Shown here one piece after another: positions 3,190 to 17,934 of a stretch of 55,503 nucleotides of DNA; position 1 is the first letter of the stretch; each line of letters starts with the position of its first letter. Source of the stretch: an uncultured archaeon. Its GTDB lineage: Archaea > Asgardarchaeota > Lokiarchaeia > Sigyniarchaeales > SOKP01. The translations under genes were made by a program, and so were the position numbers. Location: NCBI GenBank assembly GCA_964632315.1, contig CAZWEM010000028.1, forward strand, positions 1-55,503, read 5' to 3'. The notes under the pieces were generated by a model. It searched no databases and was not told the origin of the DNA. It saw nothing but the letters and a program-made list of their open reading frames with translations.

Positions 3190-4527
3190 TCAAAATTGTT
3201 TAATAAAATGGTCCAAACTATCTTTAACTTCTATTATGTTTTCACCAATTTTTTTAAATTTTATCACAGTCGCTGGTATTTCAATTTCTTCATTAATCGC
3301 TTCACGAATTGAGCTATAGAGATTTGAAATAGAAGAACATCCAAACACTTGATTAAAAATTATTCCATCGACTTTTAATTCTTTAGCTTTTTCAACATAT
3401 GATCGAGTTAGATTTTCTTTATCACACCCCAAACCTTTATTAGATGCATTTAATAAGAATTTAGCATAATTTTCAAGAGGATCTGATCTATTTGATACTG
3501 GTATTTCTTCTAAAAGTCCGAAAATATCCCAATCAGCATAAATTATGCGTCCATTTAATTCATAGATGATTTCATGGACTTTAGGATCCCATCCTGAAAA
3601 CATCGGGGTAAATAATAGTTTTGGCATTCCAGATACGTCCATTCCAACACCTTTTTTGACTCTTTGCCTTATTTCTTTTACTAATTGGCTGATATTTTCT
3701 AGATATCTTTGAGCATTTGAATTATAATCTTGGAAGGTAATCGTTAACAAAGCAAGTATTTCAGCAAAAGTAGCTGGATTACAAGGGAAAAAATCTGAAC
3801 TACTAAAATCGTGCAAGATTGTTTTGTAATAGCGCTTGATTTGATTTCCGATGCGGAATTGCTTTTTCAAACTTTCATCTGAAACTATATTTCCTGTTAA
3901 GTTTTCTAATCGATCAATAGCATTTTTTAAATTATTAACCATTATATCGACTGCTTGTTCTCTGTTCTCCAAATCTTTTGGAGGAATATCAACCCAAATT
4001 TGATCTTCTGTGTTTATAGATTCTGAAAAATAATTCCATTCCCCACAACGAAGAGCAAAGTTTAGATCAGCGTCAAGGTTTTTACCTTGAGTCGCATGCA
4101 TACCATATAATGCATTAATTCCAAAACACAGTTCTTTTAATCCTTCATTCTTTACTCCAATTTCATACATTTGGTTATATTTATCATTAATTGTATTGAT
4201 AACTTCGTCGAGTATCTTGTCCACTAATTTTAAAACATCAAATTGACGTGCTAAATCTAAGACTTTTGAGGTTAAATTCCAACCTAACACGCTTTTTGCT
4301 GAACCTAATGCCAATAGAGCCGGTAATTTAAATTTTTCTAATCTTATTGGGAAAACAGGGACGCCGCCTACGGCATATACTAAATCTGGAAACCCCAATG
4401 CTACTGATATTAATTTTTTTCGTTCTCTTGTTTTTTTTCTTTTTAGATAATCTCGTCCCATTAAAAAATTATATGACATTTTCAAAACAGAAGGAAAGCT
4501 AATGACGTCATCCGCATATATGCTCAT
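3190..4527 (-). CDS. 2-hydroxyacyl-CoA dehydratase subunit (HGD-D family), paralogue of 15437..16798
   Basis: Collinear with 15437..16798 (PCNPATFAEILALL, FQDYNSNA); C-terminal DGIIFNQVFGC; Fe-S Cys positions retained. Confidence 0.8.
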   Translation of the reverse strand: MSIYADDVISFPSVLKMSYNFLMGRDYLKRKKTRERKKLISVALGFPDLVYAVGGVPVFPIRLEKFKLPALLALGSAKSVLGWNLTSKVLDLARQFDVLKLVDKILDEVINTINDKYNQMYEIGVKNEGLKELCFGINALYGMHATQGKNLDADLNFALRCGEWNYFSESINTEDQIWVDIPPKDLENREQAVDIMVNNLKNAIDRLENLTGNIVSDESLKKQFRIGNQIKRYYKTILHDFSSSDFFPCNPATFAEILALLTITFQDYNSNAQRYLENISQLVKEIRQRVKKGVGMDVSGMPKLLFTPMFSGWDPKVHEIIYELNGRIIYADWDIFGLLEEIPVSNRSDPLENYAKFLLNASNKGLGCDKENLTRSYVEKAKELKVDGIIFNQVFGCSSISNLYSSIREAINEEIEIPATVIKFKKIGENIIEVKDSLDHFIKQF

Positions 4528-5878: not shown

Positions 5879-6101
5879 GATCATTAAAATTAAATAGTTT
5901 CTCCAATATTATTATAGAGAAGACTTGATTATAACTTGAAACCATTAAAAATTGCTATTTTATAATGGTCAAAAGAATTTATTAAAATACTAAGTAGTTC
6001 TTGCCAGATCTTTCAAAAGGTTTTGCATAAATTACGTTTCAAGTGAGATTGTCGCGTTTAATTAATTTATTATAAAAATAGAAAAAAAAAGAGGTGATTT
6101 G

Positions 6102-6368
6102 ATGACCGATAATCAAGATTTAATAGAAATAGCTAATAAGATCCTTACAGAGCAAAAAATCCCTTTAATTGATGGAAAGATATATGATAAGTTCAAAATT
6201 AAAAAGAATAACTCAGTATCATATATTGAGTTTGTTTATGAAAATGATGAGAGTATCATCCAAGGATTTCTTGGATTAGCCGATTTTTTTCACACAGTTG
6301 TCTTCAAGGAAAAGGATAAATTTTTCATTATAAATGGAAAACAAATTTATGTTTTAGAAAGTGCTTAA
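6102..6368 (+). CDS. Hypothetical protein
   Basis: GAGGTGA SD upstream; first of four overlapping ORFs. Confidence 0.7.
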   Translation: MTDNQDLIEIANKILTEQKIPLIDGKIYDKFKIKKNNSVSYIEFVYENDESIIQGFLGLADFFHTVVFKEKDKFFIINGKQIYVLESA

Positions 6369-6645
6369 AATGAAAAATATTAAACAAATAATTAAAAAGA
6401 TTAAAACCTCCTTAAAACTGAAGAGAACTAGTAAAAAGACAACAAATAGAAATATGAAAAAAGAATTAGGCGGGGAAACTTCTCTATCTTCAACCTTTTT
6501 AAATGAATATAATAGGAACATCTTAAAAAGATATAACCGACCTATCGCAAGAGAATTGCCAGAAAGAAAAAGAATTTTCACAGAAGTGAGAGACGTTTTA
6601 AATGATATTGAATCAAGATTAAGAAATGGTGAGATAGATGACTAG
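6361..6645 (+). CDS. Small basic hypothetical protein
   Basis: Overlaps both neighbours, as in an operon. Confidence 0.55.
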   Translation: MLKMKNIKQIIKKIKTSLKLKRTSKKTTNRNMKKELGGETSLSSTFLNEYNRNILKRYNRPIARELPERKRIFTEVRDVLNDIESRLRNGEIDD

Positions 6646-6904
6646 GTATTATTGCACTCAATGTCAAAGGTATCATTATCGGGGGAAGATCTATACAACA
6701 CATTTACAATATAAAAATGATGAACCAAAGAAAAAGAGCCACATTCCTACTAAAAAAATTATAGATTTTGACATAGAAGAATTAAGACCTATTGCTCAAC
6801 GCCAAGTTAAAACTTTATTAAAAAAAATGAGATTCACAAATAAACAGGACTTATACAAAAAGGAAATTAATAAGGTTATTATGTATGAAAATCAAAACAA
6901 TTGA
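6638..6904 (+). CDS. Small putative zinc-finger protein
   Basis: YYCTQCQRYH...TTH (CxxC/H/H); GGTGA SD upstream. Confidence 0.65.
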   Translation: MTRYYCTQCQRYHYRGKIYTTHLQYKNDEPKKKSHIPTKKIIDFDIEELRPIAQRQVKTLLKKMRFTNKQDLYKKEINKVIMYENQNN

Positions 6905-8105
6905 AAAAATTATCAATCTCAATGAGTTATTTGAGATTATAAAAGAAGTGATTCAACCAAAATTTAAGGTTGATGAGCGTAGCACTGTTGATGAAAATGG
7001 TTTAATATTAATTGCATCAGACAAAAATTCAAGAACGGTTCAGATATGTGCCTTTAAAGACTTAGAATTTAGTCGTACAATTATATCAATTTTGATATTA
7101 GAAGAGAACCAAAAGAATTCTAATTTCCAATTTAAACTCTATAATAAGCAGGATTTCTACAATATCATCACTTCTGAAAGTTCATTAGATTATTCGAAAA
7201 GGAAGAAGATTGAATACAGTGAACTTGAAGATAAACTATTAAAAAAATTGCTTAAAAAAGTTAAAACTAGATTTGGATATAAAGATAGGCTTTTGAATTA
7301 TCATTTTTCTTTAACCCCTGATTTTGATTTTAATGGGGAGTATTTTGCAATATATAGCAAATATCTTGATATAATTGAAAGAAACCTTGTTAAATATGGA
7401 GTACATCATTCTCATATTTTTCGGTACTATGATTTTGCCAAAAATTCTGAGATTTATCAAAGATTAATTGATATGATTGTTATCTCAGATAAAATCGTGA
7501 AGGAGAGAGAAAATAATACACATTGGATGTTATTCATTTTTTCAAATAAAAGTCAAGATAAATTAAAGTTACTAGAACTAGTAAAATTATTTGGAGAAAT
7601 TAAAAATTATTCGAAAGTGATACAAGACAAGCTATCTAAGAAGAATCAATTAATAAGACCAGCGTTGGTAATCTTATCAACAAAAGGATTTGAAGAAACC
7701 TTACCTAATTACTTAAGAAATCATCTATACGGTGAGTTCGAACACATTATTCCAATTTTCCTCATACCACCATCTAATGACGATATTTGGCACAACTTAA
7801 ATAAAGATCGCTCTTTAACTGCTGATTTAAAACGTAAGCAAAAAGAAGTACAAATGAAAATTAAACGTCTTAGGATGATAACAAATCCTGCTCCTTACAG
7901 AAAAGATCAAATTGATTCAGAAACTAAAATTTTAACTGATATTAAAGATAAGATTCATACCATCGAAAAAAATTATAAGCTTATTGATGAATTTTCTGAA
8001 ATCCTTTCTATTGAAAAATTCAAGCAAATATTCAATATAAAGGGAGAGAAATCGACTCTTAATCAGGAGAAATTAACAAAAAGTAACGAATTACTATTTA
8101 TTTGA
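6885..8105 (+). CDS. Hypothetical protein, possibly with a degenerate Mrr-like PD-(D/E)xK domain
   Basis: LIDMIV...LLELVKLFGEI...ALVILSTKGF resembles the Mrr catalytic-domain pattern. Confidence 0.55.
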   Translation: MKIKTIEKIINLNELFEIIKEVIQPKFKVDERSTVDENGLILIASDKNSRTVQICAFKDLEFSRTIISILILEENQKNSNFQFKLYNKQDFYNIITSESSLDYSKRKKIEYSELEDKLLKKLLKKVKTRFGYKDRLLNYHFSLTPDFDFNGEYFAIYSKYLDIIERNLVKYGVHHSHIFRYYDFAKNSEIYQRLIDMIVISDKIVKERENNTHWMLFIFSNKSQDKLKLLELVKLFGEIKNYSKVIQDKLSKKNQLIRPALVILSTKGFEETLPNYLRNHLYGEFEHIIPIFLIPPSNDDIWHNLNKDRSLTADLKRKQKEVQMKIKRLRMITNPAPYRKDQIDSETKILTDIKDKIHTIEKNYKLIDEFSEILSIEKFKQIFNIKGEKSTLNQEKLTKSNELLFI

Positions 8106-8182
8106 TTTCCCTAAATTAAGTTTTAAAACTTTTCTTTTCTTAACTTATTTTCCAAGAATTCAGATTTAAAATTCTTAATTTA

Positions 8183-8555
8183 CTAAATAAATAATTTTCT
8201 AATTTGAAAGAATATCAGATGTATTTGGTCAGGTAATGGGAATTTATATAAATTGAATCGCTTAAGTTTGCGAAAGTGACAAATATACTTCATAAGTTCT
8301 GCTCTCGAAACGTATTTAGCTATTTCACGGTTATTAGAGCCAGTTTGTTGAAGATTAGCTAATGGGGACAATTCTTACATTAGTATATCGCTCTTATAGG
8401 GATAGTCTATATAGAGTTCTTTCAAGTTTTTGAATCGATTAAGAAAGGACAGATCTGAGAATTGGCATTCATCAATCATAAATATTTCTATATTTTCGGG
8501 AATTTCAAGTTGTTCTAATAATAGACACACCTTACAAAAACCCACATTTAACTCT
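8183..8555 (-). pseudogene. Degenerate leucine-rich-repeat gene fragment
   Basis: The frame reads KELNVGFC...FSDLSFLNRFKNLKELYI...M*ELSPLANLQ, with an in-frame TAA at 8377-8375. Confidence 0.6.
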
Positions 8556-8780
8556 TTAGGTTTTTTTCACTAAGATGTGCTTGGATGCGTTAATGACCTC
8601 TAATTTTGGAAGCCCTTGTATCTTTTTAATTAAATTCACTTGATTCTTCACGGTAATCCAGTTGGAACTTGCCATGGCTGAAACTTCACTGATCGTATGA
8701 AATTTTCCATCTTCTAAAGCATTATATATACTCTCTATAATCTCCCAGGTTGTTTTTCTCGTGGATTGGGTTTCAGTGAT
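8556..8780 (-). CDS. Small winged-helix DNA-binding protein (74 aa, ATC start), absent from the ORF track
   Basis: (I)TETQSTRKTTWEIIESIYNALEDGKFHTISEVSAMASSNWITVKNQVNLIKKIQGLPKLEVINASKHILVKKT*; GGTGA SD 6 nt upstream; HTH-like TISEVS..SSNWITVK. Confidence 0.65.
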   Translation of the reverse strand: MTETQSTRKTTWEIIESIYNALEDGKFHTISEVSAMASSNWITVKNQVNLIKKIQGLPKLEVINASKHILVKKT

Positions 8781-8949
8781 CTCTCTTCACCATCAAATTT
8801 ATTTCAAAAAAATCAAAAATAACATCTACTATCTAAGTATTATATATAAACCTATATAAATAGTTACTTTTAGTCATAATTGTATAACAAACAGCATTTT
8901 TTTTATAACAATAGATGAGTTTTATAACTCAAAATTATATTTAAAGGAT

Positions 8950-9130
8950 CATTATATTTAAATAGGGATTTTTGCTATACTATAATAGTGTTTACCATGT
9001 TCTTAGGTATAAGTTTGTCAATAATGGCAAATACGCCTTATTTTAAAATAATTAGATCGACTTATTGCATTTCCCAAGTCGATCGTGTGAATAATTGAGA
9101 AATAAAAAACTCCCATAAGGAGGTAATTTC
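8950..9130 (+). promoter_or_regulatory. Promoter and structured 5' leader of the B12-mutase/opine dehydrogenase operon
   Basis: TATA-like element near 8952-8962; hairpins at 9014-9031 and 9055-9084; SD GGAGGT at 9119-9124. Confidence 0.45.
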
Positions 9131-10870
9131 ATGATTAAGAATGATAATAATGGCTTCAAAACCCTAAAAGGAAAGATCATATTGACAGCGAGTATTGGAC
9201 AATGCGTTCATGTTGCGGGAGCATATAATTTCATGAATATTGCGAGCCAATTAGGGTTTAAATGCATCTTTTTAGGCCCCGCTACTCCAAATTCCATTAT
9301 AATAGAAAAGATAAGAAGCATTAAGCCAAATATAGTGGGGTTTAGTTATAGGCTTACTCCGTCTACATTAAAACCTATTCTTAGGAAATTTAAAAAAAAA
9401 TATATCAATGTAGATGAAAAACCTCAACGCTTATTTTTTGCGGGTACTCCTCAAAATGTAGAAATAGCGAAAGAATTTGATCTCTTTGATGAATATTTTG
9501 TAGGAGGGGAGTCAAAATATAAAATTATATCAATTTTAAGGCGTGAAAGGTCTGATTCAGAAAAAATAATTAAAATTCCAATAGAATTGATTCCACGGAT
9601 TAAATGGAAAAAACCTTATCCTATCATAAGAGCTCATTTTGGTTTGGAAAATCTCGAGGAAACTTTAAACGGAATAAAGAAATTAGCGAACGCAGAAGTT
9701 TTAGATATCATCTCAATTGCACCAGATCAAAACACGCAAGCTAATTTTTTCCATCCAGAGGACCAAGATGATGGCCTTTCAGGGGCAGGAGGAGTTCCAA
9801 TAAGATCCAGAGAAGATTTATTAAAGATTCATCAAGCAAGATTTACTGGAAATAATCCATTATTAAGAATTTATGCCGGAACTCGTGATTTTATAAAACT
9901 AGGAAAACTTTTTAGAGAGACAATCCAAAATGCTTGGGCGGCTATTCCGATATTTTGGTTTAATCAAATGGATGGTCGGGGCCCTTTAAGTTTAAAAGAG
10001 TCAATAAAACAGCATCTGGAAGCCATTAAATGGCATGCTGAGAACAAGATTCCTGTTGAGATCAATGATCCTCATCATTGGAGTTTAAGAAATGCTCCAG
10101 ATGCTATTGCAGTGGCGGATATGTATTTAAGCGGAATAATTGCGAAAAAACTAGGAGTAAAACATTTTATTGCCCAATACATGTTTAATACGCCACCAGG
10201 AAGTTCGTTTGATATGGATTTAGCAAAAATTATGGCAAAAGATGAGTTGCTTCATACTCTGATCGATGATAAATTTTCAGTAATTCGGCAGGTTCGTGCG
10301 GGATTAGTTAGTTTTCCACTCAATCTCAATAGAGCTAAAGGACAATTAGCTGCTGCAACGATGGTTCAATTAGCGATAAAGCCAGATATTATTCATATTG
10401 TTAGTTTCAGCGAAGCAGATCATGCTGCTAACCCAGAAGATATCATAGAAAGTTGTAATATAGTTGAACAAGTTGTAAATAAGGTATATGAAAGTAATCT
10501 AAATGTCATTAATGACAAAATTAATGAAAGAAAAGAAGAATTGATAAAACAAGCTAAATGGATCATAGATTTGGTTCCACATTTAGCTAAAAATAGAGAG
10601 GAAAGAGAGAATCCTTGGAGAGATTATAACGTATTGCATAGACTAGTTAAATTTGGTATTTTTGATGCCCCTCATCTTAAAAATAACAAATATGCTCTCG
10701 GAAAAATTATAACAAAAGTGATTAACGGAGGATGTTATTCTTGGGATCTTATCCGTAATAAAAAATTGGATGAAATTGAAAGGATCAAGACGATAATAGA
10801 TGAAAATGCCAGCTTTATGGATTTTGATATAAAAGCTAAAACAAGTCCAAAAGAGGTGAAAATAAAATGA
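9131..10870 (+). CDS. Cobalamin-dependent protein: N-terminal B12-binding domain fused to a glutamate-mutase-E-like barrel
   Basis: GQCVHVAG (DxHxxG variant), FLGP, VGFSYRL, FFAG; the C-terminal AKKLGVKHF..DLAK..SFP..AATMV..SEA pattern recalls glutamate mutase E. Confidence 0.75.
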   Translation: MIKNDNNGFKTLKGKIILTASIGQCVHVAGAYNFMNIASQLGFKCIFLGPATPNSIIIEKIRSIKPNIVGFSYRLTPSTLKPILRKFKKKYINVDEKPQRLFFAGTPQNVEIAKEFDLFDEYFVGGESKYKIISILRRERSDSEKIIKIPIELIPRIKWKKPYPIIRAHFGLENLEETLNGIKKLANAEVLDIISIAPDQNTQANFFHPEDQDDGLSGAGGVPIRSREDLLKIHQARFTGNNPLLRIYAGTRDFIKLGKLFRETIQNAWAAIPIFWFNQMDGRGPLSLKESIKQHLEAIKWHAENKIPVEINDPHHWSLRNAPDAIAVADMYLSGIIAKKLGVKHFIAQYMFNTPPGSSFDMDLAKIMAKDELLHTLIDDKFSVIRQVRAGLVSFPLNLNRAKGQLAAATMVQLAIKPDIIHIVSFSEADHAANPEDIIESCNIVEQVVNKVYESNLNVINDKINERKEELIKQAKWIIDLVPHLAKNREERENPWRDYNVLHRLVKFGIFDAPHLKNNKYALGKIITKVINGGCYSWDLIRNKKLDEIERIKTIIDENASFMDFDIKAKTSPKEVKIK

Positions 10871-11970
10871 TTTTTTGCGTAATTGGTGCTGGAAATGGAG
10901 GAAGAGCCTTTGCAGCTTATCTCTCCTCAAAAGGATACACGGTTAAATTATATAACAGATCATACTCCAGAATAGCAGATATAATTAAAAAGGGTATGAT
11001 TAAATCGTCTGGTTCCTTAAAAGGTAAATATCCCATCGATACGGTTACGCAAAATATTGAGGTTGCACTTAAAGATGTCGATGTAATTTTAGTAGTAACT
11101 CCTGCTTTTGCCCATAAAGCTATCGCAAAGTTAATCGCTCCATATTTAACGCAAGATCAAATAATTCTATTAAATCCGGGAAGGACTTTTGGGTCGATAG
11201 AGTTCAGAAACACAATTAAAGAAGAAATTGGAAATATACCAATATTTATCGGAGAGACACAAACACTTCTCTTTACTTCGAGAGAGTTAAAAAAGAATGG
11301 AGTACAGATATTAAAAATTAAAGATTTGGTTGATTTTTGCGGTTTTCCAGAGAAGGACACTTTTTTCATCTATGACACATTAAGAGAGGTATTTCCTCAA
11401 CTCAATCCTATTGATGATTACTTGGAAGTATCATTAAGAAATATCGGGATGCTATTACACCCAGCATTAAGTTTGATGAACTCTGGATTCATGGATATTG
11501 GAAGAGAGTTCAAGTTTTATAAGGAGGGAGCGACATTCCACACATGTGAAGTGCTTGAACAAATACAGTTTGAAATAAATCTTATATTTGAAAAGTTAGG
11601 TATGCCACGTCTTAATTTTTGCGATTGGGCTAAAAAATCATATGGGGTAAGTTCGAAATGTATCCACGAAGCGATTCAGAATATAATTGCTTATAAGGAT
11701 ATAAATGCTCCCAGAGAATTAATCACGCGTTATTTTACTGAGGACGTGCCTACAGGATTAGTTCCAGTATCTTCAATAGCTCACTTCTTGGGCGTTAAAA
11801 CCCCAACTATTGATTCAATTATTCAGTTATCGTCTATTCTTTGTGGAACGGCATTTAAAAAGACTGGTAGAAACATTCATAAACTAAACTTTGGAGATTA
11901 TATAACGAAAAGAATTGAGATTCAAGATTTTATTATTGATGAAAAAAAATCAATAAAAGCAAGGATTTAA
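10867..11970 (+). CDS. NAD/NADP octopine/nopaline (opine) dehydrogenase family protein
   Basis: VIGAGNGG Rossmann motif, LNPGRTFG, NIGMLLHP, FYKEG, RYFTEDVPTGLVP; ATGA overlap with the upstream gene. Confidence 0.9.
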   Translation: MIFCVIGAGNGGRAFAAYLSSKGYTVKLYNRSYSRIADIIKKGMIKSSGSLKGKYPIDTVTQNIEVALKDVDVILVVTPAFAHKAIAKLIAPYLTQDQIILLNPGRTFGSIEFRNTIKEEIGNIPIFIGETQTLLFTSRELKKNGVQILKIKDLVDFCGFPEKDTFFIYDTLREVFPQLNPIDDYLEVSLRNIGMLLHPALSLMNSGFMDIGREFKFYKEGATFHTCEVLEQIQFEINLIFEKLGMPRLNFCDWAKKSYGVSSKCIHEAIQNIIAYKDINAPRELITRYFTEDVPTGLVPVSSIAHFLGVKTPTIDSIIQLSSILCGTAFKKTGRNIHKLNFGDYITKRIEIQDFIIDEKKSIKARI

Positions 11971-12770
11971 TGTTTTCTTGCTCTTAATTTAGCCAATTCT
12001 TCTTTTTCAATTCTAGATTTTATTATAGCAATGTCATCTTCCATTGTTGATATTAAATTATCTTGATCGAGATTTAACTCGACTAAAATATCACGGACTT
12101 CTTGAAACAATTTTAATAGCTTAGAATTTGGGATTTTCCTTAAAGTAGTAACTGGAATATGAATGAATCTGGATGCAAATACATATAAAGATGTAATAAG
12201 TATCCAGATAAGAATTAAGATAGTTAGTGTCCATTCTATTATTGGAATAAAGGTAGTTAAAAGTACAATCAAAACAATAACTATAATAAAACCCAAGATG
12301 GGATGAAATTTTCGAAAATTTAGTCTAGGATAAGTTGATTTTCGTGATCCTAAAAACATTAAAAGACTAAATAAACCTATATAAATCGCAGAACCGATAA
12401 AACTGAAAAATGCTACGATATCATGAAAAACTAAAAAAATTTGAATGTACGTTTCATCGGGAATGATTCCAACTAAAGCAATGCAGACACAAGTTACTAA
12501 TGACATCCCCGTAGCTAATCTTCGAACACTTTCATTGATATTTGATAGTTCTCTTTCAAGATATATATAGAAAGGTATCTCCAGGGATCCCCCAACGACA
12601 AATGCAATGCTGAATAATGACTTTGCCGGACCATAGCCTAGACTACTGACTGTATTCTTAAATGGGCTATAACCAGGAGTTTGGATAGCTGCTAAAACTA
12701 AAAGAACAATTGCAATCGTGATACCAGCAAGGCCAAATATGGGTTCTAGTTTATATTTCAAACGAATCAT
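11967..12770 (-). CDS. DUF998-like membrane protein
   Basis: PGYSPFKNTVSSLG, GIIP, HDIVAFFSF; about 6 TM helices. Confidence 0.7.
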   Translation of the reverse strand: MIRLKYKLEPIFGLAGITIAIVLLVLAAIQTPGYSPFKNTVSSLGYGPAKSLFSIAFVVGGSLEIPFYIYLERELSNINESVRRLATGMSLVTCVCIALVGIIPDETYIQIFLVFHDIVAFFSFIGSAIYIGLFSLLMFLGSRKSTYPRLNFRKFHPILGFIIVIVLIVLLTTFIPIIEWTLTILILIWILITSLYVFASRFIHIPVTTLRKIPNSKLLKLFQEVRDILVELNLDQDNLISTMEDDIAIIKSRIEKEELAKLRARKH

Positions 12771-15436: not shown

Positions 15437-16798
15437 TCAACCATTTACCATTTCCATAAACGCACCAAGACGGGTACTTACTTGCTCTACATTTTCACCA
15501 ATCCGATTAAAGGTGTAATACATTGATGGAATCTCTAAATTTCTTCTAATTTTTTCCTTTAAAAGTCTATAACAATTAGAAATCGAATGACATCCAAATA
15601 ATTGGTTAAAAACTAATCCGTCCGCACTTAACTTTTTCGCAACTCGCATATAAGAATCCGTCAACACGTTATTATCGCAGCCTATCCCATTCTCCGTAGC
15701 ATTCATTATAAAATCAGCATATGCTTCAATTGGATCTGTTTTATTTGTAATGGGAATGTCATCCAACAGTCTTAAAACGTCCCAATCTGCATACAAGGCT
15801 CTCCCTCCTAATCTATAAATGATTTCGTGAGTCTTGGGCTCCCATCCTCCGAACATAGGTGTTACCAAGATTTTCTTATATTTAGAAACATCCATACCTA
15901 ACCCTTTTCGTATGCGCTCTCGCATTTCGTTTATCATCTGGTGAATGTTTTCTGCATATCTTTTGGCATTTGAATTATAATCTTGAAAACTAATGCTAAG
16001 TAGTGCAAGAATTTCACTAAAAGTCGCTGGGTTGCAAGGATAAAAATCTGAAGCACCTATCTCATAAATTATATTCTTATAATCTCTACGTATTTGGTTA
16101 GTTAATTTAAAATGTTCTCGCAAGGCACTATCACTATAAGAATGGCCACTTAGCTTTTCAAGTTCATGGATCGCGCTTTTTATATTATCTTCCAATAATT
16201 CCATTGAATTTCCAATATTCCTAGGAGGTATATCTACCCAGATATCTTTAACATTACTATCAATACTTTTTAAAGACTCTGAATATTTATTCCAAGCGCT
16301 ACATCGAATAGTATAATTCATTGTAGCACTCACGTTTTTCATTTTTGTTACATGCATACCTACTAAAGTTTTTAAGCCAAAACAAAAATCAGTAGAGATA
16401 CCTCGCTCAACTCCAATATCATACATTTCGTTGTACTTCTGGTTTAAAGTCTCGATAACGTCATCAATAATTTCATCAATTATCTTACTAATCTCTTCGA
16501 TACCTGCATTCTTGATAAACCCAAGAAATTTAGATACATTATCCCATCCAAAAAAACTAGAAGCAGAACCTAAATAGGAAAGATACTTGCTTATTTTGAA
16601 AATATGCATTCTAATTGGAAATACCGGAACTAGATTTGGAAATCCGAAGATTAAATCAGAGAAGGGAAGCGCAACTGAGATGAGATGCTTCTTTTCCCTT
16701 AATTTCATTCTTTTTAATTCATCTCTTCCAGCAATTAAATTATACGACATCTTTAATACGGAAGAAAAACGGATAATTTCATCAGCATATAAACTCAT
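15437..16798 (-). CDS. 2-hydroxyacyl-CoA dehydratase subunit (HGD-D family)
   Basis: DFCFG, IRCSAW, DGLVFNQLFGCHS, EQVSTRLGAFMEM; in an operon with the activase. Confidence 0.85.
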   Translation of the reverse strand: MSLYADEIIRFSSVLKMSYNLIAGRDELKRMKLREKKHLISVALPFSDLIFGFPNLVPVFPIRMHIFKISKYLSYLGSASSFFGWDNVSKFLGFIKNAGIEEISKIIDEIIDDVIETLNQKYNEMYDIGVERGISTDFCFGLKTLVGMHVTKMKNVSATMNYTIRCSAWNKYSESLKSIDSNVKDIWVDIPPRNIGNSMELLEDNIKSAIHELEKLSGHSYSDSALREHFKLTNQIRRDYKNIIYEIGASDFYPCNPATFSEILALLSISFQDYNSNAKRYAENIHQMINEMRERIRKGLGMDVSKYKKILVTPMFGGWEPKTHEIIYRLGGRALYADWDVLRLLDDIPITNKTDPIEAYADFIMNATENGIGCDNNVLTDSYMRVAKKLSADGLVFNQLFGCHSISNCYRLLKEKIRRNLEIPSMYYTFNRIGENVEQVSTRLGAFMEMVNG

Positions 16799-17934
16799 TA
16801 ATTTATCATCTCCAAAAATGCCTCGATTCTCGTAGATAATTGCCCCCTATTGGCGCGAGAATAATCTCTTTCTAAATTTAAAACTTGAATCCCTTTTTTT
16901 TGTAATTTTTCCTTAAAGTACGTAGAATGCATTGAAAAATGATCACAAAATTTTATGATATGATTTATCACTCCAAGATCTTGATCTTCTCTCTCTTTAT
17001 AAATTCTATTTATCTCTTCAATTCGAGTTACTTTATACTCTAGAAAGTTGGGAATAGAATGATCGCTTAATCTATTCCTTTTAAATCTCTCAACTAATAA
17101 ATCGTAGGGATTTGATATCGAATTCAATGTTTCATTATCGAAGGTTTGAGAATAATATTGGTTACCTATCCATGTGTCAAAAAAAACGACATTCCCTCCG
17201 GCATCTTCAATCAATTCAATTATATTATCATTTAGAAAAATAGAACAACCAGTAAGAATCACATTTTTAATATGTTTTGATTTTTGCTGATTTTGTTTAT
17301 TCTTTTCTATAAATTCAGAAATCATTTCAATAGAGTTTGGGCCATAAAGCATAGCAGTTTGGATAATTTGTAGTTTTTTCGATCCAATCAAATTTAATGA
17401 GTTTAACTCGAGTAGTTTAAGCTTGAAATTATTATATTTTTTAATGCTTTTTAATAAATCTTCATCAGCAATTTCTTTATCTATGATCTTTTCAATCTGC
17501 TCTTTAAAATCAATCAATTCTAATTTAAAATACTTCAAACTATTTTGATTCTTTGTATAGGGTAAGTAAAAATTCAATCTAGGAATATTAAAGTACTTCG
17601 TAATGATTTCTGATCCACATATATCAGAAACGCAATGATTTGAAACAATGAAGTAGTCAATCAGATCTAAAAACTGATATTGAGAAGGTTTCAATGAAAA
17701 AAGTCCTATCATTGATTGAGTAAAAGCACAGGTGGATGGGGGAAGATAATCGTGACTCATATTCATTAGCTCATCGTTCCCTCCAAACATCAATCTTAAG
17801 GGAAAAACACCAGCCGCATCTAACAATTCTTCAGGAATATTATCATGTGCTAAAAATGAAGCTACTTTACATCCTTCCTGCTTCTTTAGCTTTAAAAAAA
17901 GTGAAAATTCCATTAAAAGATTATTCAAATCCAT
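16798..17934 (-). CDS. 2-hydroxyacyl-CoA dehydratase subunit (HGD-D family)
   Basis: PEELLDAAGVFP, STCAF, KFCDH, LERDY..GQLSTRIEAFLEM. Confidence 0.9.
   Translation of the reverse strand: MDLNNLLMEFSLFLKLKKQEGCKVASFLAHDNIPEELLDAAGVFPLRLMFGGNDELMNMSHDYLPPSTCAFTQSMIGLFSLKPSQYQFLDLIDYFIVSNHCVSDICGSEIITKYFNIPRLNFYLPYTKNQNSLKYFKLELIDFKEQIEKIIDKEIADEDLLKSIKKYNNFKLKLLELNSLNLIGSKKLQIIQTAMLYGPNSIEMISEFIEKNKQNQQKSKHIKNVILTGCSIFLNDNIIELIEDAGGNVVFFDTWIGNQYYSQTFDNETLNSISNPYDLLVERFKRNRLSDHSIPNFLEYKVTRIEEINRIYKEREDQDLGVINHIIKFCDHFSMHSTYFKEKLQKKGIQVLNLERDYSRANRGQLSTRIEAFLEMIN

Follow-up and report, generated by a model that had tools for sequence, protein, structure and literature searches.

Background

Glutamate mutase is usually split into separate S and E subunits and is paired with methylaspartase, and the clostridial enzyme has MutL/GlmL as an accessory protein. 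To our knowledge, only about a dozen reactions of adenosylcobalamin (AdoCbl) isomerases have been described, and additions to this list are infrequent. Here we describe two overlapping genes in a 55,503-nucleotide contig of an uncultured Asgard archaeon (CAZWEM010000028.1; the whole of this stretch is called the window below). Gene 1 encodes P0001, a 579-residue protein with an N-terminal B12-binding domain and a barrel resembling that of glutamate mutase E (GlmE), and gene 2 encodes P0002, an opine dehydrogenase (ODH) of 367 residues. The analyses indicate that the pair is a predicted AdoCbl isomerase with a remodelled pocket, together with a new and obligate partner.

A family of this kind has been noticed before. 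Zhang, Rodionov, Gelfand and Gladyshev (2009; BMC Genomics 10:78, PMC2667541) predicted a new family of B12-dependent proteins from 11 bacterial genomes and no archaea. Its members have a distant N-terminal B12-binding domain and are always encoded beside an octopine/nopaline dehydrogenase of family PF02317, with genes for D-Ala-D-Ala ligase and asparagine synthase nearby; the authors gave no function and called for experiments. An initial annotation of the window, made from its sequence alone, had presented the pair as belonging to an uncharacterised pathway. This needs to be amended, in that the family was flagged already in 2009, and it holds in that we found no reported function. A full-text literature search for a characterised function returned only the 2009 prediction; most subscription journals lie outside such a search, and a published function is possible.

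The mutase and opine dehydrogenase genes form a conserved pair

Loci were collected in a scan limited to one genome per species, which gave at least 595 loci. Counts out of 80 given below refer to the best 80 of these, which span Asgard archaea, Bacillota, Chloroflexota and Gemmatimonadota. The ODH gene is adjacent to the mutase gene in 77 of the 80, and the other three loci end at the gene, at the end of a contig. All 11 Asgard loci that were first examined also have the two genes side by side, and both gene orders are seen among them. More generally, ODH precedes the mutase in Bacillota, and the mutase precedes ODH in Chloroflexota and in the clade of the window. In an uncultured Anaerolineaceae bacterium, the B12 domain, the barrel and the ODH form one protein of 920 residues (L069:5392-8154). 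The pairing is thus conserved across two domains of life, with hundreds of anaerobic archaea and bacteria as carriers, in both gene orders and with one natural fusion, and we conclude that the association of mutase and ODH is obligate.

The same is seen at the level of genomes. Among 201 sampled Asgard genomes the mutase is present in 78, the ODH in 81 and both in 76; in one of the two that have only the mutase, the end of the contig truncates the locus. In a FastTree phylogeny the window protein belongs to a well-supported Asgard clade of 28 members, to which the protein of Promethearchaeum syntrophicum MK-D1 is a long-branched sister; the bacterial clades correspond for the most part to phyla, and a single Asgard copy groups with the bacteria. 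Besides MK-D1, cultured carriers of the pair are found in Caldanaerobacter, Thermoanaerobacter, Thermoanaerobacterium, Tissierella and Fervidicola.

Within the window, both open reading frames (ORFs) of the reported two-gene operon are present, as is the ATGA overlap that joins them (Table 1); a 4-nucleotide overlap is also present in most of the Asgard loci examined. Each gene occurs as a single copy in the host genome, which is 99.5% complete. The G+C content of the window is approximately 30%, and the homologues of gene 1 are almost entirely from Asgard archaea. No third conserved gene was found among 12 Asgard loci or among the 80 loci: the genes directly downstream vary, and include CutC, an amidase, a methyltransferase and Lnt.

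Fold of the gene 1 protein

The structure of P0001 was predicted using AlphaFold2 (pLDDT 83, pTM 0.81). The top Foldseek match of the model is glutamate mutase E (1cb7_B, E 8.5e-15), followed by ornithine and lysine aminomutases, methylmalonyl-CoA mutase and 2-hydroxyisobutyryl-CoA mutase. Alignment using VIA-align gave a Z score of 29.1 with GlmE (1cb7_B) over 373 residues with an rmsd of 3.1, placing residues 148-551 of the model on residues 43-440 of the chain. The corresponding Z scores are 28.2 for lysine 5,6-aminomutase, 25 for ornithine aminomutase and 20 for methylmalonyl-CoA mutase, while the barrels of MetH and of the dihydropteroate synthase (pterin) type score 14-15. The first 29 structural matches consist of GlmE, aminomutases and acyl-CoA mutases, plus ThiC at rank 24. 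Since the barrel matches AdoCbl isomerases best, the objection that it might be a pterin or methyltransferase barrel is not borne out, and the model supports its assignment to the AdoCbl-isomerase class of folds, closest to GlmE.

The relationship to GlmE is visible only by structure and by profile-profile comparison, and searches of the PDB using hidden Markov models of the barrel gave no GlmE match. The Pfam family Met_asp_mut_E (PF06368) scores 24.3 bits on P0001, below its cut-off of 26.6, and only profile positions 170-347 are covered. A profile of a wide and diverse family alignment (A2) matches a profile of 18 genuine GlmE sequences (A3) with a Prob of 85% and E 6e-6. The family alignment A1, compared using hhalign with a single GlmE or with A3, gives a Prob of only 2-5%, with alignments that agree with that of A2 and A3. 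The initial annotation had compared the barrel with GlmE. The motifs that it quoted (AKKLGVKHF, DLAK, GLVSFP, AKGQLAAAT and IIHIVSFSEA) are all found in P0001, and the GlmE segments that it gave were accurate: 1cb7_B contains aaeqgvk, qdiaa, ggfpqde, afgvi and atkvivktphea, and the profile alignment pairs these segments. The proposed likeness stands as far as the fold is concerned, but does not extend to the substrate residues of GlmE, as described below.

The N-terminal domain is a Rossmann-type B12-binding domain. The Pfam B12-binding family gives only 26.4 bits on P0001 (cut-off 32.1). A profile made from 20 family members matches the B12 domains of corrinoid proteins (4jgi, E 3.6e-9) and also those of MttC, MetH and KamE. 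In VIA alignments, residues 10-140 of the model match 4jgi, 1y80 and 7xcn_M with Z scores of approximately 15 and rmsd values of 2.1-2.5. The helical cap that precedes this domain in corrinoid proteins was not seen. The Rossmann fold of P0001 starts at approximately residue 14, leaving about 13 residues before it, and the matching regions of the corrinoid proteins start near residues 87-92.

Residues 23-30 of P0001 read G-Q-C-V-H-V-A-G, and the CVHVAG segment aligns with the DxHxxG motif of MetH, MttC and KamE, in agreement with the earlier observation that CxHxxG takes the place of DxHxxG. All 79 homologues that cover this site have both His27 and Gly30; at position 25, 76 of them have Cys and three have Asp (L062, L079 and L083). 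Only one of the three Asp loci, L062, has MutL, and the choice between Asp and Cys is therefore uncorrelated with MutL. P0001 contains four cysteines in all, at positions 25, 45, 442 and 535, and has no CxxxCxxC motif of the radical-SAM type, as had been stated.

The predicted active-site pocket

Fifteen residues are invariant in P0001 and its 80 homologues, from two domains: R156, R167, H169, D199, Q203, R246, Y248, D281, R283, E310, R320, D324, R389, H422 and E428. Six of the residues in this set are arginines. Because the 15 residues never vary, we conclude that one pocket is conserved from Asgard archaea to Firmicutes; the sequences suggest that presumably one reaction is conserved with it.

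The residues that bind substrate in GlmE are not kept. In the profile alignments, R66, R100 and R149 of GlmE align with H169, Q203 and Y248 of P0001 (for R66 and R100 with less support; see below), and the GlmE loop containing Y177 and Y181 corresponds to a nine-residue deletion. E171 of GlmE aligns with D281, which is a conservative change. The invariant R167 and R246 of P0001 are located two residues upstream of positions aligned to the lost GlmE arginines. The GlmE numbering used here (R66, R100, R149, E171, Y177 and Y181) was checked on the sequence of 1cb7_B, and the mapping of R149 and E171 was reproduced in two alignments. Gene 1 is therefore glutamate-mutase-like in its fold only.

A Halanaerobiales genome (G205) carries both a genuine GlmE (741 bits, PF06368) and the ODH-mutase pair (L070). 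Because a canonical glutamate mutase coexists with it there, the pair is not simply a glutamate mutase isozyme. The replacement or deletion of the substrate residues and this coexistence led us to reject gene 1 as a glutamate mutase. In the same genome, the canonical glmE lies between ORFs of 456 and 434 residues (L112:30-4185), which by their position are possibly glmL and methylaspartase. A canonical aminomutase dependent on pyridoxal phosphate (PLP) was also rejected: the PLP-binding K144 of KamE, which is located 11 residues after the His ligand, is replaced by Ala38 in P0001, and 90% or more of the sequences in alignment A1 have Ala here.

Among the homologues P0009-P0121, NCBI labels many "methionine synthase", and JGI labels some either "glutamate mutase epsilon subunit" or "methylmalonyl-CoA mutase cobalamin-binding subunit". 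The evidence agrees with none of these labels.

Cofactor supply and reactivase genes

The host genome encodes two CobA-type adenosyltransferases, three large subunits of the methylmalonyl-CoA mutase type and 15 B12-binding domains. AdoCbl is available in this host, because both the adenosyltransferases and the mutase-type subunits are present, and the gene 1 protein is predicted to use it.

Some relatives of the mutase are fused to MutL/GlmL (P0143, P0145 and P0150, of 826-1266 residues). Separate MutL genes are found beside the pair in five of the 80 loci (L060, L062, L064, L066 and L099), and the gene in L064 scores 570 bits against PF13941. The P0143 gene (L027:3908-7588; loci L027/L028) lies beside oligopeptide ABC ATPases and an AAT-family gene, with no ODH on the contig. 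This suggests that the MutL-fused mutase at this locus represents a related subfamily with another partner.

The opine dehydrogenase

The identification of gene 2 as an opine dehydrogenase is firm. P0002 matches the Pfam family Octopine_DH (PF02317) with 123.4 bits (1e-35), far above the cut-off of 30, and residues 3-343 give a full-length match to the Arthrobacter enzyme CENDH/ArODH (1bg6, E 4.4e-72). The dinucleotide-binding motif is G7-A-G-N-G-G12, of the GxGxxG/A type. H198, D293 and R288 align with H202, D297 and R292 of ArODH, and are kept in at least 72 of 76 partner ODHs. The residues at the positions that determine specificity in ArODH are listed in Table 1.

Telek et al. (2024; PMC10787698) described six hot-spring enzymes (mODHs) that prefer L-Asp or L-Glu with pyruvate, mostly with NADPH. 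Exchanging A111/N198 of ArODH and the R/G found in their place switched ArODH and mODH-582 between L-Phe and L-Asp. The D-to-N/S changes of the N-R-S segment are the same as those reported for the NADPH-preferring mODHs, and the substrate range of metagenomic ODHs that share these R/G determinants extends to several non-canonical acidic amino acids (PMC10787698). The paper does not discuss the genomic context of the mODHs. The published mODH sequences share both the R/G and the N-R-S motifs, and mutase-linked ODHs show 44-51% identity with mODH-48 over its first 74 residues. By analogy in sequence, the partner ODH is expected to make or cleave an N-(1-carboxyethyl) acidic amino acid using NADP(H).

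A metallophore had been suggested as a product of the pair. A metallophore of the staphylopine type was rejected: the sequence matches of P0002 in the PDB include no CntM-type structure, and neither a nicotianamine-synthase-like gene nor a racemase gene recurs among the conserved neighbours in the 12 Asgard loci or in the 80 loci.

Riboswitch and gene neighbourhood

Riboswitches for cyclic di-AMP (c-di-AMP) turn genes off at high c-di-AMP, and control mainly genes for potassium uptake, osmolytes and the cell wall. In 13 of 15 Bacillota loci, a riboswitch of this class (ydaO, RF00379) is located directly upstream of the operon, scoring 98-118 bits against a gathering score of 38. In two loci (L066 and L068) the riboswitch is separated from the ODH gene by a gene for a Ddl-like ATP-grasp protein. 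Of the roles originally considered for the pair, that of making a compatible solute has gained from this association, while a metallophore and a catabolic role gained no support. At the start of an Anaerolinea contig, approximately 7.6 kb upstream of the pair, there are tandem c-di-GMP-I riboswitches (L067:20-108 and 194-279), which are probably unrelated.

Several kinds of gene are loosely linked to the pair: AsnB-like amidotransferases recur near it in 13 loci, Ddl-like ATP-grasp genes in nine and DUF5698/DUF2179 genes in five. One operon (L029:35-4463; P0124) combines an ODH, a mutase fused to an ATP-grasp domain of the glutathione-synthetase/RimK type, and a C26 peptidase/GATase. In L002, genes for C26, GGACT and GCS2 are located 2-5 kb downstream of the pair. 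A distant paralogue of 620 residues (35% identity) is found in L030 in a glycan cluster with glycosyltransferases, DegT, FdtA, an ATP-grasp gene and an Octopine_DH gene.

Proposed function and alternatives

The initial proposal of an AdoCbl-type radical mutase coupled to an opine dehydrogenase is supported by the fold and by the conserved pairing. Our preferred reading of how the two are coupled, which we put forward tentatively as quite possible though short of probable, is that the NADPH-type ODH joins an acidic amino acid and pyruvate into a tricarboxylate opine, the skeleton of which is then rearranged by the AdoCbl mutase. Gene 2 would condense an acidic, Asp- or Glu-like L-amino acid with pyruvate and NADPH to an N-(1-carboxyethyl) amino acid, which is a tricarboxylate secondary amine. 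Gene 1 would act as a single-chain, base-off/His-on AdoCbl radical isomerase, whose B12 domain delivers the 5'-deoxyadenosyl radical into the glutamate-mutase-type barrel, and the carbon skeleton of the opine would be rearranged in the remodelled, arginine-rich pocket. An enlarged pocket with six invariant arginines, as predicted here, fits a tricarboxylate opine as substrate. The product would be synthesised rather than degraded, in Bacillota with synthesis turned on at low c-di-AMP; it might serve as an anionic solute or as a counter-ion for potassium, and some lineages may modify it further with amide ligases. It would probably be tied to osmotic or potassium balance.

Several points weigh against this reading. 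The Cys in place of the Asp of DxHxxG, as seen in the sequence, may affect the cobalamin chemistry in an uncertain way, and no MutL-type reactivase was found in the host genome. The mapping of R66 and R100 of GlmE rests on a low-probability profile alignment; a second alignment reproduces only residue 244 onward, and the well-supported one starts near residue 282. No result fixes which of the two steps comes first, and among osmolytes a tricarboxylate would be unusual. The pair is patchy in Asgard archaea, being present in 38 of 85 high-quality genomes. Finally, no RF00379 riboswitch was found in positions 7800-12300 of the window at E values up to 1, nor in seven loci from Chloroflexota and Gemmatimonadota, and for this reason an osmotic role in Asgard archaea is an extrapolation from Bacillota.

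The order of the steps could be reversed, such that a free acidic amino acid is the substrate of gene 1 (glutamate, for instance, would give a branched isomer such as 3-methylaspartate) and the ODH then condenses the product with pyruvate. GlmE ranks first among the structural matches, its Glu171 has an acidic counterpart in D281, and metagenomic ODHs with the R/G determinants take several non-canonical acidic amino acids; nevertheless, we consider this order rather unlikely, given that R66, R100 and R149 have become H169, Q203 and Y248, that the Y177/Y181 loop is deleted, and that a canonical glutamate mutase coexists with the pair in the Halanaerobiales genome. Methylaspartase is not adjacent to the pair, as had been pointed out, and none scored above threshold in the whole host genome. 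It is doubtful, and somewhat more so than a reversed order, that the product is an envelope building block, that is, an opine-type amino acid which, instead of being a free solute, is attached by amide ligases to a glycan or wall peptide. In most loci, the window included, conservation is limited to the two genes, Asgard archaea have no murein, and the homologue in the L030 glycan gene cluster, which together with its Octopine_DH gene would point to such a role, is a distant paralogue rather than an orthologue. The control of cell-wall genes, too, by c-di-AMP riboswitches speaks for an envelope role, as does the recurrence of Ddl-like ATP-grasp and AsnB-like genes near the pair (seen also in PMC2667541).

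A catabolic module appears improbable. Here the ODH would split an imported opine or imino acid by oxidation, and the mutase would remodel either the amino acid set free or the opine itself for fermentation. Opine dehydrogenases are reversible, and some Asgard loci do have AsnC-type regulators, peptidases, a major facilitator superfamily transporter or genes resembling 2-hydroxyacyl-CoA dehydratase. However, 75 of 76 partner ODHs carry the NADPH-type signature, conservation extends to no transporter, lyase or downstream gene of catabolism, the partners that recur are ligases that consume ATP, and the riboswitch class controls potassium and osmolyte genes. We give only a slim chance to a PLP-independent aminomutase, in which the C=N of the imine of amino acid and pyruvate, formed or held on the ODH, would replace the PLP aldimine and nitrogen would shift by one carbon. 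A beta-amino acid or its opine, such as a solute of the beta-glutamate type, would result after reduction or hydrolysis. The near-equal Z scores for aminomutase (28.2) and GlmE (29.1), the missing PLP lysine and the natural fusion provide a context for this idea and no specific support. It is scarcely credible that gene 1 is a corrinoid methyltransferase or "methionine synthase", with a B12 domain that shuttles methyl groups and a barrel that binds the methyl donor or acceptor. The best sequence matches of the B12 domain are indeed corrinoid proteins of methyltransferase systems and MetH, and NCBI names many homologues accordingly; but the barrel scores Z 20-29 with AdoCbl isomerases against approximately 15 with MetH and dihydropteroate synthase, no helical cap is seen before the B12 domain, MutL/GlmL fusions and neighbours occur, and the metH model TIGR02082 scores 15 bits where its cut-off is 1011.

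The pair is a candidate for a new B12 reaction, as a separate and strictly conserved branch of the isomerase fold, and its obligate redox partner predicts a class of substrate, the N-carboxyethyl acidic amino acids. If the pathway were solved, it would provide a function for genes mislabelled "methionine synthase" in hundreds of genomes, and could reveal a metabolite under the control of c-di-AMP, a regulon of interest for potassium and osmotic homeostasis. It would also extend what little is known of Asgard metabolism by a B12-dependent pathway, where the cultured MK-D1 carries the pair. The proposal is testable, because cultured hosts are available (Caldanaerobacter, Thermoanaerobacterium and Tissierella) and a closely related class of ODH has already been expressed and assayed. 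The L069 fusion is a good structural target.

Features and surroundings of the pair in the window

The features of the two genes are collected in Table 1.

Table 1. Positions of the mutase and opine dehydrogenase genes and of their sequence features in the window
Feature	Position	Strand	Basis and remarks
Gene 1 (P0001)	9131..10870	+	ORF, 579 aa; N-terminal B12-binding domain and glutamate-mutase-E-like barrel in a single chain
B12-binding Rossmann domain, residues ~14-138	9170..9544	+	Family profile against 4jgi; structural match; no N-terminal helical cap
CVHVAG motif, residues 25-30	9203..9220	+	Predicted lower-axial ligand His27; Cys at the usual Asp position
TIM barrel and C-terminal cap, residues 148-551	9572..10783	+	Predicted substrate and adenosyl site; VIA against 1cb7_B, profile-profile comparison
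Gene 2 (P0002)	10867..11970	+	ORF, 367 aa; ODH of predicted NADPH and acidic-amino-acid type
N30-R31-S32 (ArODH D34-I35-D36)	10954..10962	+	NADPH-type cofactor signature; alignment to 1bg6; 75/76 partner ODHs
Arg106 (ArODH Ala111)	11182..11184	+	Predicted determinant of acidic amino-acid preference; alignment; 76/76 partner ODHs
Gly194 (ArODH Asn198) to catalytic His198 (ArODH His202)	11446..11460	+	Alignment; G194 75/75, H198 75/75
ATGA overlap, gene 1 TGA stop / gene 2 ATG	10867..10870	+	Sequence; translational coupling
Shine-Dalgarno-like GGAGGT	9119..9124	+	Sequence; 6 nt before gene 1 ATG
Shine-Dalgarno-like GAGGTGA	10853..10859	+	Sequence; in the end of gene 1, 7 nt before gene 2 ATG

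Upstream of the pair, four co-directional, overlapping ORFs of 89, 94, 88 and 406 residues (6099-8105, + strand) have no Pfam match. They are followed by a gap of 1 kb before gene 1, in which there are three short ORF pieces on the minus strand (8183-8371, 8375-8545 and 8556-8675, within 8183-8798). The last of these runs on upstream into a winged-helix-like stretch (TTWEIIESIYNALEDGKFHTISEV...) that is not preceded by an ATG, GTG or TTG start. Either the gene has decayed or its start is non-canonical. Downstream, the ODH gene meets a convergent gene for a DUF998 membrane protein (11967-12770, - strand), with a 4-nucleotide overlap between the end of the latter and the ODH stop.

Further away, matches to the 2-hydroxyglutaryl-CoA dehydratase D-component family (HGD-D) are found on the minus strand at 3190-4527 and 15437-16798; an ORF at 16798-17934 (- strand) has the same length and position as one in L002 that is HGD-D. 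L002 and L003 likewise have HGD-D-like genes within a few kb of the pair. As these genes are common to no more than three loci, and lie several kb away, we regard them as mere neighbours, and their proximity may be due to chance.

Comparison with known systems

The closest system in fold is the glutamate mutase of Clostridium cochlearium (GlmS/GlmE, also MutS/MutE; EC 5.4.99.1; 1cb7, 1ccw, 1i9c and 6h9e), with which gene 1 shares the barrel and cap and the His-on Rossmann domain. An acidic residue (D281) is present at the position of Glu171, and genes of the MutL/GlmL type are fused to or located beside members of the family. In contrast to the separate S and E subunits of glutamate mutase, gene 1 encodes one chain with the B12 domain at its N-terminus; it has CxHxxG in place of DxHxxG, and its partner is an ODH and not methylaspartase. 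The barrels of lysine 5,6-aminomutase (KamDE; 1xrs and 8t0v) and ornithine 4,5-aminomutase (OraSE; 3kow-3kp1) are nearly as close as that of GlmE. The B12 domain of gene 1 aligns with that of KamE, but gene 1 lacks the PLP lysine and an accessory subunit of the S/β type.

In the NAGGN osmolyte pathway, the AsnO amidotransferase and the ATP-grasp enzyme Ngg make the solute from acidic amino acids, under osmotic regulation. The resemblance to the system proposed here would be an analogy of logic only; the NAGGN pathway has neither a B12 enzyme nor an ODH.

For gene 2, the comparison is with the ODH of Arthrobacter sp. 1C (CENDH/ArODH, 1bg6), with which P0002 shares its full length and the catalytic residues. 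ArODH has Ala111 and Asn198, and favours hydrophobic amino acids, with NADH as its cofactor, whereas P0002 has Arg106, Gly194 and the N-R-S segment. The hot-spring enzymes mODH-45, mODH-47, mODH-48, mODH-49, mODH-55 and mODH-582 (PMC10787698) are like P0002 in these features, with Arg at position 111, Gly at 198 and the N-R-S signature. The gene pair as a whole is, by its description, the same as the family predicted in 2009 (PMC2667541), to which the present analysis adds the assignment of the glutamate mutase fold, the link to a riboswitch, and archaeal members.

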